Assembly (NCBI GenBank): GCA_022764505.1
Contig: JALEQJ010000024.1
Coordinates: 2,287-66,286 of the forward strand
DNA length: 64,000 nt
Source of the DNA: Phocaeicola sp.
GTDB lineage: Bacteria; Bacteroidota; Bacteroidia; Bacteroidales; Bacteroidaceae
Direction: 5' to 3'
Under the pieces are notes generated by a model, which saw only the letters and a list, made by a program, of their open reading frames with translations, did no database searches and was not told the origin of the DNA. Shown here piece by piece: positions 11,193 through 58,395 of this stretch. Made by a program: the position numbers and the translations under genes. Each line of letters opens with the position of its first letter. Within the stretch, counting starts at the first letter, position 1.

Positions 11193-11325
11193 ATATATTC
11201 GTTCAAATAGTTTATTTCTACAAAAATAGGAAAAGAAAGCGAAGCTACGCAAAGTATAGAAAGGGATTTTAAGTATATGCTTTGCTATGGACAAGAAGAA
11301 TAATATGAGTTTATGCAGAAATCTA

Positions 11326-11408
11326 TATTTCGTATTGTGGTTGATATAAACTTCCATCGTGGTTTATATAAACCACGCCACAGAACATATAAACTTCGGT
11401 ACGGAATA
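11326..11408 (-). repeat. Copy E of the 22-bp palindromic-unit intergenic repeat family
   Basis: ATATAAAC at 11344, 11366 and 11387; perfect 20-bp palindrome CGTGGTTTATATAAACCACG at 11358-11377; 25-nt identity (TATTCCGTACCGAAGTTTATATGTT, minus strand) with copy D. Confidence 0.85.
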
Positions 11409-11469
11409 AAGATAGCATCGTAATACTATCTGTGTAGCAAAGGTATATTTGATATAAAGAGAGGCTTGT

Positions 11470-22879: not shown

Positions 22880-23098
22880 AATGGTTAGAATTTTAGGTTA
22901 GAATAATTGTTAATTATCTCTTTTTGTTATTAGTCCATGATGCGAATGTAGCAAAAAAAAAGTAGCAACCTATAAATTACTGTCTTTTTTTTGCAAAAAA
23001 CCTTTTTCTCCTCTTCATTGTTGTTGTATATCTGTAGGATATGTTTGAAAAATGTTTTTTCCTGCGATGGTTTTTTGTGGTTATTGGTTGCTCGTTTT

Positions 23099-23200
23099 TA
23101 TTCCGTACCATAGTTTATATAAACTTCTATGGAAGTCTGTATATTTCATAGTGGAAGTCTGTATATTTCATAGTGGAAGTCTATATATTCCGTGCCTAAG
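23099..23200 (+). repeat. Copy A of the 22-bp palindromic-unit intergenic repeat family
   Basis: Exact tandem 22-mer TGGAAGTCTGTATATTTCATAG at 23130 and 23152, a third partial unit at 23174, and a first unit with palindrome AGTTTATATAAACT at 23112-23125. Confidence 0.88.
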
Positions 23201-30540: not shown

Positions 30541-30620
30541 ACTTAGGTTTATATATTTCGTGATGGAAGTTTATATAAACCATAGTGGAGATTATGAAGA
30601 CTTCGGCATAAGTTTATAGT
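30541..30620 (+). repeat. Copy B of the 22-bp palindromic-unit intergenic repeat family
   Basis: GTTTATAT at 30547 and 30569 (22 apart); palindrome GTTTATATAAAC at 30569; 17-nt identity AGGTTTATATATTTCGT with copy C (40593). Confidence 0.8.
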
Positions 30621-40493: not shown

Positions 40494-40558
40494 GTTATGT
40501 ATATTAGCTGATTCTCCTATGGTGAGTGGGAAGATGCGTGAAGAGTGCAGGCAAGGTT

Positions 40559-40642
40559 TATCCCATACCGAAGTTTATGTAGATTTCCATTAAGGTTTAT
40601 ATATTTCGTACCGCAGTTTATATAGACTTCCAATATGAAATA
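40559..40642 (+). repeat. Copy C of the 22-bp palindromic-unit intergenic repeat family
   Basis: GTTTAT units at 40573, 40595 and 40616; starts TATCCCATACCGAAGTTTAT; ends TATGAAATA. Confidence 0.83.
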
Positions 40643-40741
40643 TAGAAAATTCCCTATAGATGAAGATGAGGAAAGAAAAACAAGTTCTTTTCTTGTTGCA
40701 GCATATTATCTTTGTGTACATAAAACCTTATTGAAGAATAT

Positions 40742-41359
40742 ATGAAATACACTATGAGAAGTATGCCGGATTTACACGGCAAAGGAAAATCTATCACTTA
40801 TCCTCAATTATTGCATAGTAGTGTGATAAGTACAGATCAAGTAGCTGCAGAACTGCAAGTGAGAAGCTCTTTTACAGTGGGGGATATAAAAGGCCTTATC
40901 TGTAGTTTGGCTACTTATATAGCAGAGCGAACAGCAGAGGGAAGTTCTGTGAGAATAGATGGTTTAGGGACATTTTTCGCTACGTTGCGTTTAGTGGCAG
41001 GAGTGGAGAGAGAAGTAGATGGAGGTACGAAACGAAATGCACGGAGCGTTTGTATACGTACTATCAGATTTAGAGCAAATAGGAAAATGGTAACAGAAGC
41101 GCAGAAATACTGTGTCTTGGAACGAGTACGCTTGCCCGAGCGGAAGAAGAAAGTAATAAACCCGGAAGAACGTCTCAGACTTGCATTGTCTTATATGGCA
41201 GAGAGGGGATTTCTACGTGTGAAAGATTATGCACATCTCACAGGGCTTTCCACTACACAAGCATCTATAGAGCTTAGGAAGTGGAAAGAGGAAGGATATA
41301 TGATTACTTCGGGGAGGGCTACGCACAAGGTGTATATGCTACCACAAGATAAATCATAG
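40742..41359 (+). CDS. HU-like DNA-binding protein with C-terminal winged HTH
   Basis: SSFTVGDIKG...L, V.IDGLGTF and I.FRA HU-like motifs; C-terminal KDYAHLTGLS..QASIELRKW...G; -7 box at 40707. Confidence 0.8.
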   Translation: MKYTMRSMPDLHGKGKSITYPQLLHSSVISTDQVAAELQVRSSFTVGDIKGLICSLATYIAERTAEGSSVRIDGLGTFFATLRLVAGVEREVDGGTKRNARSVCIRTIRFRANRKMVTEAQKYCVLERVRLPERKKKVINPEERLRLALSYMAERGFLRVKDYAHLTGLSTTQASIELRKWKEEGYMITSGRATHKVYMLPQDKS

Positions 41360-56707: not shown

Positions 56708-57119
56708 TCTTGATTTTCTTTTTAATTATTACTACTAAAAAACAAACATTCTCCACACCCTACCGCATCTCGGACAAATGGGTAAAATGCTTTGAACTAA
56801 TTATTTATATCCTTTTCGGATAATAATCGGCTTGCAAATGTACTGCTTTCATACTAAATAGACAAAGAATTGCTATACCTTTTTCTTCTATCTGCATCTT
56901 TTTCTGCCCTGCATAGGAGGGTTTTGACTATTGAGGAAAGATCTGTTTTCTCAATAATTGTTGTATGTCTCAACTTTTTCTGCGTATTTTCTGATGAGTT
57001 GTTTTCACAAGTTTTTGAAGCTAATTAGCTATATAGATTGTCTATAAACAGGAGGATACTGTAGGTGTTGGTGTCTTGTAAATGATTTTTGTAAGGTTCG
57101 CGGAAGAATGGTATCGCAT

Positions 57120-57392
57120 TTAGAATAGATCAGCGTGGGTGCCTGTGTCAATGAGTTGTAATATGAGTTGATGATCGTCTTGTAACCAAATCAGCAACCA
57201 ATCGGGTTGCAGGTGGCATTCCCAATAGCCATTGTATTTACCGGATAATTTATGTGGGCGATATTCAGCCGGAAGTTTGCCGGATGCCTGCAATAGTCTT
57301 ACTGCTTGCTCAAAGTCTGCAGGGTTTAGTCCTCGTTTAATACATTTTTTAAACGAGCGACGAAAGCGTGTGGTATATATGATTTCGTACAT
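57120..57392 (-). CDS. yafQ: YafQ/RelE-family type II toxin
   Basis: F..S.KK, LP..Y.PHKL.G...G.WECH.QPDWLLIW and TGTHADLF motifs. Confidence 0.9.
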   Translation of the reverse strand: MYEIIYTTRFRRSFKKCIKRGLNPADFEQAVRLLQASGKLPAEYRPHKLSGKYNGYWECHLQPDWLLIWLQDDHQLILQLIDTGTHADLF

Positions 57393-57402
57393 ACCATTGT
57401 CT

Positions 57403-57615
57403 TTATTTCATTAGTTGTGCCATCAAGTCGTCCACGTTCTTTGCCTTGTGTATACGTCCTGCTTTCAGATCTTCTATGGCTTCGTCAAGTCCGTTGCGAT
57501 GTTCTTGTTCTACAGTCCACCCCATACGTTTGGCAAGTTCTTTGAGAAATTTGAGATCTGCCATATTTGAGACTCCTATTCTTACGGTAGGTTTGTCTAT
57601 GGTTGTTGTTTTCAT
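57403..57615 (-). CDS. Cognate antitoxin (small protein, RelB/DinJ-like C-terminus)
   Basis: 70 aa, 10 nt upstream of the toxin; C-terminal EAIEDLKAGRIHKAKNVDDLMAQL resembles the DinJ-type toxin-binding tail. Confidence 0.8.
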   Translation of the reverse strand: MKTTTIDKPTVRIGVSNMADLKFLKELAKRMGWTVEQEHRNGLDEAIEDLKAGRIHKAKNVDDLMAQLMK

Positions 57616-57942
57616 TCTTTTACCTCCTTGATTATACCCTGTTTATAAAAGCAAAGATGAGATTTTCTATAGATAAATACAAGTAATTATACTATTTTTT
57701 CTCTCTGTGAATTAAGTATGGAGAGAGTGTTCATTTAGTTTTGTGTAGAGCTTGTTTAGAGAGATGTATGTCAATCAAGAAATTTTACGAATCTCGTTTA
57801 CTTGTGTGAATGTTATAGAGGTGTGAATTGTCAGGCTGATGGGTTAGTATGGCTATTCGCAATGTTCTTTTTTAATCCTCTTAATATACATCTTTCTTTT
57901 TCTTGAATGCGCAATTGTTTTTATATAAGGAGAGGCATAAAG

Positions 57943-58030
57943 TCTATTCCGTACCGAAGTTTATATGTTTCATATAGGAAGTTTATATAGACTCCCATTG
58001 AAGTTTATATAAACCGTGCTATGGAATAGA
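57943..58030 (+). repeat. Copy D of the 22-bp palindromic-unit intergenic repeat family
   Basis: GAAGTTTATAT exactly at 57956, 57978 and 58000; flanked by imperfect inverted ends TCTATTCCGTA / TATGGAATAGA. Confidence 0.88.
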
Positions 58031-58395
58031 ACCTACTTGGTCTCTTGATGAATTTCTTGCGGGAACGAGCTGTGTCTTCTGTGCGTGTAGTGTAATATCA
58101 CCCTTTTGGCTATTGCCTTGCTATCTATACTTGTACATTTTTGCAGTGTAAATGAATGATAGTAGTGGAAAATAAAATAATAGTAAATATAAAATTTTTA
58201 CTGTTTAATGCTTGTATATAAAATAATGGATATATCTTTGCAATACAAAGTACTGAAATCTGTATCGGAAATAATGATATAAAACTACCATAATATAGGT
58301 TTTACGCATTGTAAAGCAGTTTTCTGACTTAATAGATGCGTGTAAGAAGAAAAAACTTATCCTAAAAGTAAATAACCATTAAATATCAAAACCGT

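Follow-up and report, generated by a model that had tools for sequence, protein, structure and literature searches.

The window analyzed here is a stretch of 64 kb, corresponding to positions 2287-66286 of contig C56 in a genome assembly of 2.14 Mb (70 contigs, 39.7% G+C, 92.8% complete). Five look-alike stretches are located in it, designated A to E, and they are true copies of a noncoding repeat of ~90 bp. All five copies reported for these 64 kb in the initial annotation were recovered at their places, as 5 of 108 loci in the genome. Positions below refer to the window, unless a contig name precedes them.

Copy E is a full-length representative of 90 bp on the plus strand (57942-58031; nhmmer match at C56:60228-60317, 73.1 bits, model positions 2-91). 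Its left inverted end, GTCTATTCCGTAC (57942-57954, plus strand; family consensus TCTCTATTCCGTAC), pairs in the predicted fold with the right inverted end, GCTATGGAATAGAA (58018-58031, plus strand), whose reverse complement TTCTATTCCATAGC matches the left end. Three cores are placed between the ends. The central one, GTTTATATAGAC (57981-57992), is preceded at 22 bp by a degenerate half-palindrome, GTTTATATGTTT (57959-57970), and followed at 22 bp by the exact palindrome GTTTATATAAAC (58003-58014). The word GAAGTTTATAT recurs exactly at 57956, 57978, and 58000, as previously noted. With up to one mismatch it has 18 occurrences in the window, where shuffles predict 2.5 and none of 100 shuffles reached 18.

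Copy A is also full-length (89 bp; 11323-11411, minus strand; C56:13609-13697, 60.7 bits) and occupies a short gap flanked by two genes of the minus strand. Copy B (23097-23200, plus strand), placed between divergent genes, is an expanded run of 22-bp units. In detail, its nhmmer match covers 23097-23165 (C56:25383-25451) and is followed by tandem units up to ~23200, and Tandem Repeats Finder reports 23130-23189 with a period of 22, 2.7 copies, and 97% matches. Copy C (30543-30620, plus strand) is degenerate or partial, with a match of 31.2 bits at 30543-30609 (C56:32829-32895), and sits between maf and the fructose-bisphosphate aldolase gene. Copy D (40557-40656) is degenerate, gives nhmmer matches on both strands (C56:42843-42942), and is located between a phosphoglucosamine-mutase-like gene, which has a terminator-like hairpin, and an HU-HIG gene. 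The product of the latter is a protein of 205 aa (40742-41359, plus strand; PF18291, E = 8.5e-14), encoded ~100 bp past copy D, with a predicted start that varies among strains (198-205 aa) and one distant paralogue in the genome (C25:96735-96935).

The copies share long words in different combinations. For instance, TATTCCGTACCGAAGTTTATATGTT is present at 57945 (plus strand) and 11384 (minus strand), AGGTTTATATATTTCGT at 30545 and 40593, GATGGAAGTTTATAT at 30562 (plus strand) and 11344 (minus strand), and CATAGTGGA at 23147, 23169, and 30581, that is, twice inside one copy. All four words listed in the initial annotation are thus real, but the copy letters given there agree only in part with these pairs.

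A full copy consists of imperfect inverted ends, TCTCTATTCCGTAC...GTACGGAATAGAGA, around three (sometimes two or four) GTTTATATAAAC palindromes. The consensus of 50 full-length copies reads ATCTCTATTCCGTAC-CACA-GTTTATATAAAC-CGCAATGGAA-GTTTATATAAAC-CATAGTGGAA-GTTTACATAAAC-TTAA-GTACGGAATAGAAAT. The 12-bp palindrome and a 10-bp spacer of the form C-CA-NNN-TG-GAA, with three or four central positions free, compose a period of 22 bp. A unit spacing of 21-22 bp had been described from the window, and it holds for the whole family: from one core to the next, the distance is 22 bp in 123 cases and 21 bp in 20. There is also a second type of spacer, TATTTCGTACCGAAG, with a sequence related to the end of the element. 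Spacers mostly point in one direction, with both orientations mixed in 12 elements, and the number of units per copy ranges from 2 to 4 or more. The earlier description of the family as a shuffled set of modules is therefore apt, based on the two spacer types, their orientations, and the variable unit number.

Within the family, conservation peaks in the central core (mean pairwise identity of 0.94), followed by the outer cores (0.83-0.86), the ends (0.67-0.79), the spacers (0.65-0.70), and the linkers (0.49). A central core which is kept better than the ends and spacers is the reverse of what is found in a classical MITE bound by its transposase, and this hints at a constraint on the palindromes.

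The dyad centers alternate every 11 bp and thus the whole element can fold as a single long hairpin. The predicted fold of the consensus has an energy of -32.2 kcal/mol (z = -8.4), and for copy E, z is -4.2 when folded as RNA and -3.2 when folded as DNA. For the terminal helix, the test of the inverted ends gave 77.8% of cells paired. Covariation among 27 diverse copies was nowhere above that of shuffles, with paired cells at 82.2% against a shuffled mean of 82.2%. The absence of base-pair covariation among these copies indicates that the symmetry is a property of the consensus sequence and not of a compensated, maintained fold. A maintained RNA or single-stranded DNA fold was rejected on the same comparison.

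For the census of the genome, an nhmmer profile was built from six copies. The search recovered 108 separate loci in 2.14 Mb, with a modal length of 89-91 bp and a density of about one copy per 20 kb. These loci contain 251 palindromic cores (two mismatches to the palindrome at most). As an exact word, the palindrome GTTTATATAAAC is found at 113 places in the genome, where base composition would predict 0.5, and 112 of the 113 are within catalogued elements. The family constitutes ~0.5% of the 2.1-Mb genome and marks almost one in ten of the intergenic gaps of 120 bp or more.

Genes were approximated by ORFs of at least 120 aa (86% of the genome covered), and 106 of the 108 loci are wholly outside these ORFs, with the remaining two overlapping an ORF end by ~30 bp. 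The repeat is tolerated only between genes. The gaps occupied are divergent in 34 cases, tandem in 50, and convergent in 12, which is roughly proportional to the intergenic DNA of each type. Genome-wide, copies show no strand bias relative to their flanking genes (29 co-oriented to 21 anti-oriented, p = 0.32), and their orientation is associated neither with GC skew nor with the local majority gene strand. No association of the copies with any gene class was found.

All-against-all alignments of the copies with 60-bp flanks revealed that similarity breaks off at the same two ends, to within ~3 bp. Three pairs of solo copies, C31:9781/C31:17810, C13:39238/C56:13609 (the latter is copy A; 97%), and C11:37180/C11:51307, are nearly identical (99%, 97%, and 95% among the three) in unrelated flanks. 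The element has therefore been duplicated as a discrete unit bounded by its ends. The median pairwise identity is 79%, an indication that most copies are old.

The usual traces of transposition were searched for around these ends. No target-site duplication of 2-9 bp was detected at 100 boundary offsets in 19 solo copies, nor by eye, and the best case was a 2-mer in 6 of the 19 against 2.5 expected. Outside the copies, the end motif gave almost only chance matches inside ORFs and hardly any between genes. Nowhere in the ~93%-complete assembly does it flank a coding element that could serve as an autonomous partner. Two IS types are present in the assembly, IS256-like (GGTAGTGTCCC...) and IS982-like (ACGTGAGTTCGGGATAAG), and the ends of both are unrelated to those of the repeat. 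Since the assembly is ~93% complete and in 70 contigs, a partner gene could be missing from it.

The orthologous regions of four window copies were compared with contigs of other strains (B, n = 3; C, n = 10; D, n = 5; E, n = 1), which derive from other samples, are ~95-98% identical in nucleotides over the same genes, and include NCBI assembly GCA_028724865.1. In each contig compared the copy is in place, so that no empty site was found at these 4 of the 108 loci. The comparison of orthologous sites and the search for target-site duplications, both proposed in the initial annotation, thus returned neither a presence/absence difference nor a duplication, and mobility is deduced from the history of the family and not observed.

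Copy E has no differences in a strain whose flanks show 97.5% nucleotide identity. Two other strains are without exactly one 22-bp unit of copy B, 7 of 80 positions of copy C are polymorphic across strains, core positions among them, and copy D differs by ~12% from five other strains, against ~6% in the noncoding flanks. The divergence of copy D includes a patch of 5 nt in one spacer; gene conversion was rejected as its origin, since a search for a donor among the copies of this genome was negative. At present the copies change through point mutations and as whole 22-bp units are gained or lost. In view of the unit change in copy B, the variable sites of copy C, and the excess divergence of copy D, individual copies are without visible purifying selection. 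The nearest relatives outside the species are only ~83% identical in the aldolase gene and have no synteny, so that their intergenic DNA cannot be aligned.

Beyond the species, a pattern of two cores at 22 bp was used as a probe. It has 97 matches in this genome and none in 40 others, of which 24 belong to the genus and 16 to different families of the same order. A search of 185,579 species genomes retrieved only four isolated matches at chance level, and the plasmid and phage collections gave none. The scan of metagenomes returned 10 contigs with the pattern, all unrelated and none aligning to this genome, which look like local iteron or operator arrays. In such unrelated contigs of low G+C content, TGTTTATRTAAACA or CATGTTTATATAAAC is arrayed at 22 bp. 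In two unrelated metagenome contigs (L036:7778 and L040:849; 26-27% G+C), a 22-bp unit, CATGTTTATATAAACGGTTAGT, is repeated in tandem over long stretches. These arrays resemble the iterons of plasmids or phages, and they share palindrome and period with the present repeat by coincidence or convergence.

With a model based on sequence only, weak matches of almost full length were obtained in 16 of 107 other genomes of the genus; 250 further genomes of the order (184 genera) gave none. These matches, together with the relatives of 21-bp period picked up by a pattern search with variable gap, define sister families of ~90 bp. Their layout is the same, mostly with a 21-bp period, and their ends are TCTCT..AGAGA or TCTATA..TATAGA. 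In genome G068 the family has the form TCTCTATACTTAGCCTAAG-TATATAAAAACTTAGGCTGAG-...-AATAGAGA (~92 bp), in G012, G019, and G055 it is TCTCTGTTTCACACTGTG-GTTTATATATTCCACAGTGTG-...-ACAGAGA, in G001 and G095 it is TCTATAAACCACGTCGG-...-GGTTTATAGA, and in G083 it consists of GGTTTATATAGATTAAACTAT repeated. Architecture and ends are common to the sister families, and the spacers are species-specific. In G068, the element is also embedded in a larger repeated unit, and its loci L067-L078 have conserved outer flanks (left ..gcgaataaaaa.., right aattgaataaga....ttcgcaag).

Taken together, the most probable reading, with a likelihood of roughly 60%, is that of an old, lineage-expanded, nonautonomous repeat of the REP/BIME, MITE, or BOX type, which now changes by mutation and unit slippage. 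The copies would form a family of common descent which multiplied in the lineage of the present species. Their spread may have been driven by an enzyme acting in trans, which would recognize the ends or the palindromes and leave no target duplication. This mobilizing enzyme may have been lost, may lie in an unassembled part of the genome, or may not yet have been recognized. The phase of 21-22 bp, that is, two turns of the helix, would then seat the enzyme, or a DNA-binding dimer of the host, on one face of the DNA.

The same phase leads to an alternative which is possible, if unlikely, namely that the copies serve today as docking arrays, in which a dimeric nucleoid-associated, regulatory, or recombination protein would bind GTTTATATAAAC along one face of the DNA. 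The repeat would then be a domesticated platform and not merely selfish DNA, which is compatible with a mobile origin. The strictness of the 22/21-bp phasing (123 and 20 cases) and the identity of the cores (0.83-0.94, against 0.49-0.70 in spacers and linkers) point in this direction, as does the absence of covariation, by which the symmetry belongs to the sequence. Related families of other species have the half-core GTTTATATA as well, with spacers that differ; however, this conservation across species is partly an artifact of detection, since the search model weights the core most. Similarly, iteron-like TGTTTATRTAAACA arrays appear at the same spacing in unrelated metagenome contigs, and an HU-HIG gene follows copy D, although this adjacency concerns 1 of the 108 copies. 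Against a current function of this kind, the divergence of copies between strains is equal to or higher than that of the flanking noncoding DNA, core positions included. In addition, copies have no link to gene orientation, gap type, or gene class, and IS insertions within them are tolerated.

Roles in stabilizing, terminating, or insulating transcripts have been proposed for REP, ERIC, and BOX elements. A comparable role at the RNA level, where the imperfect hairpin would be transcribed and act on transcripts in one of these ways or yield small RNAs, seems very unlikely for the present repeat. It would agree with the strong predicted hairpins (z = -8.4 for the consensus and -4.2 for copy E) and with the position of some copies in short co-directional gaps, such as 11323-11411, where they are probably transcribed. 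Yet strand bias (29:21) and covariation (82.2% in paired cells and in shuffles alike) are both absent, which speaks against such a role. Moreover, 35% of the copies lie between divergent genes, copy D is placed past a terminator-like hairpin and ahead of the next gene, and no Rfam family matches.

A REP/REPIN population kept by a single-copy RAYT transposase would account for short palindromic units of high copy number between genes, for the BIME-reminiscent mosaic of small hairpin modules in which part of the family is embedded, and for the IS insertions into repeats, but it is extremely improbable, as the Y1 domain (Y1_Tnp, PF01797) has no match in this genome (G000) or in the relatives with most of the related copies (G068, G083, G001, and G095) and is present in only 3 of the 14 carriers of related families, while the same search found it in 6 of 14 named control genomes.

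The preferred reading, that is, an old nonautonomous repeat, places the family among several known kinds of elements without identity to any of them. With the REP/BIME elements of Enterobacteria and Pseudomonas it shares high-copy intergenic palindromic units, a lineage-specific sequence, and its role as an insertion target of IS elements, but it lacks a RAYT/Y1 transposase. Most copies are solo, and the mosaic that holds ~25 of them may be comparable to those of BIMEs. The hairpins of classical REPs are G+C-rich, 20-40 bp long, and alternate in orientation; in contrast, the units of the present repeat are AT-rich palindromes of 12 bp in a strict 21-22-bp phase within defined inverted ends. 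Like the Correia elements of Neisseria and the ERIC/IRU elements of enterobacteria, it is a noncoding element of ~90 bp with terminal inverted repeats and the potential to fold as one hairpin, duplicated as a discrete unit into dozens to hundreds of intergenic copies. Unlike these MITEs, it has neither target-site duplications nor an IS with matching ends, its interior is conserved above its ends, and it shows no presence/absence polymorphism at four loci. The classical tests of a MITE thus fail for want of a target duplication and a matching IS, and those of a REPIN for want of a RAYT.

In form, the modular build with variable internal units is closest to the BOX elements of Streptococcus pneumoniae (boxA-boxB(n)-boxC), by analogy of architecture and not by homology. 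In both, conserved terminal modules enclose internal modules of variable number, which in the present repeat differs between strains (copy B) and between copies. Compared by description (PMC10969869), the unit is 22 bp and palindromic instead of 45 bp, and there is no sequence similarity.

Within Bacteroidales, the initial annotation had drawn a parallel to the BrickBuilt MITEs of Porphyromonas gingivalis, which stands as an analogy and not as homology. Both are intergenic, with inverted ends and a minisatellite of ~22-23 nt. BrickBuilt has a 23-nt unit, AGAYCATARTATCCTCTCRTRTG, and ends, GAGACCTTTGCA, which match ISPg1/ISPg9, and its 19 copies contain long direct-repeat arrays, with 18 full repeats in one copy (PMC4596501). 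The present repeat has 3-4 palindromic units in 108 copies, and identity with BrickBuilt was rejected, since the unit and ends printed for it (PMC4596501) have nothing in common with those found here.

Finally, palindromic sites at about two helical turns are also typical of plasmid and phage iteron or operator arrays. These are single, local, and beside their cognate gene, whereas the present repeat has 108 copies of common descent with shared ends, dispersed over the chromosome, and no cognate gene was found for them.

Searches of existing descriptions gave little. With Rfam, the whole window contains a tRNA alone, and copy E has only sub-threshold chance matches. The literature search for the core sequence returned only an unrelated mitochondrial paper, and a search for work on REP-like repeats in Bacteroidales yielded nothing. 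The proposal of an unannotated MITE/REP-like family is therefore supported in a broad sense, by 108 intergenic loci with sharply bounding inverted ends that match neither Rfam nor the literature. To call it the best candidate for an undescribed system was an overstatement, as the family is undescribed but its general kind is known.

A wider proposal is speculative, and we regard it as distinctly doubtful. Arrays of dyad-symmetric 21-22-bp units with TCTCT...AGAGA ends may constitute a class across the genus, and perhaps more widely in Bacteroidales, whose architecture, more than their sequence, would be dictated by one protein, either a recombinase or transposase that makes no target duplication or a nucleoid protein binding as phased dimers.

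Proteobacteria and streptococci have been studied extensively for small dispersed repeats, and Bacteroidales very little. The phasing over two turns, the lack of target duplication and of a RAYT, an interior kept above the ends, and the existence of sister families make the present repeat a reasonable entry to the search for an enzyme or a binder. If neither an enzyme nor a binding protein exists, the repeat is ordinary selfish DNA. Since it varies by whole units between strains, it could serve for typing. It also breaks short-read assemblies, through the IS insertions that it attracts.

These insertions involve the IS256-like element (end GGTAGTGTCCCAAAAAGTGTGTAAGC, with a Transposase_mut-like ORF), which abuts the repeat at five different internal positions, all outside the window (C46:29960, C48:36778, C53:146011, C64:27547, and C70:46860). 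Out of ~13 ends of this IS, 5 lie inside copies, and all five are in the subfamily of the larger mosaic, which makes up ~0.1% of the genome. These positions suggest that the IS256-like element prefers the repeat as a target, or that it is at least strongly tolerated there. Some IS elements target REP sequences in a like manner.

The larger mosaic is a repeat of ~740 bp composed of small hairpins. About 25 copies with conserved extra flanks form one module of it and the others are solo. An example is found at C32:41403-42146, between hflX and the next gene, and partial copies are located on C1, C7, C11, C12, C16, C28, C30, C31, C45, C53, C58, C64, and C66. Its hairpins are G+C-richer, for example, cacaacccctatggggttg and ggaatccccatcggggatt, and its loci carry different subsets of modules in a BIME-like manner. 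At C53:24564-26222, one mosaic module recurs at least 7 times in steps of ~101 bp, which looks like a long tandem array.

Two further sites of the window were noted in contigs from other samples. Next to copy E, a segment of 994 bp (56927-57920) is replaced by 92 bp of unrelated sequence in contig L051 (SRR32406408; 97.5% identity). It carries a gene for a YafQ-like toxin (57120-57392, minus strand) and a small upstream gene (57403-57615, minus strand), and its right breakpoint is 22 bp before copy E, at a half-core-like word, TTTATATAA. Upstream of the aldolase gene by ~2.2 kb, the Logan contigs L057 and L059-L061, which come from independent samples, break at nearly one point, and this breakpoint, near the L21/L27 genes, hints at a repeat or a strain-variable site.
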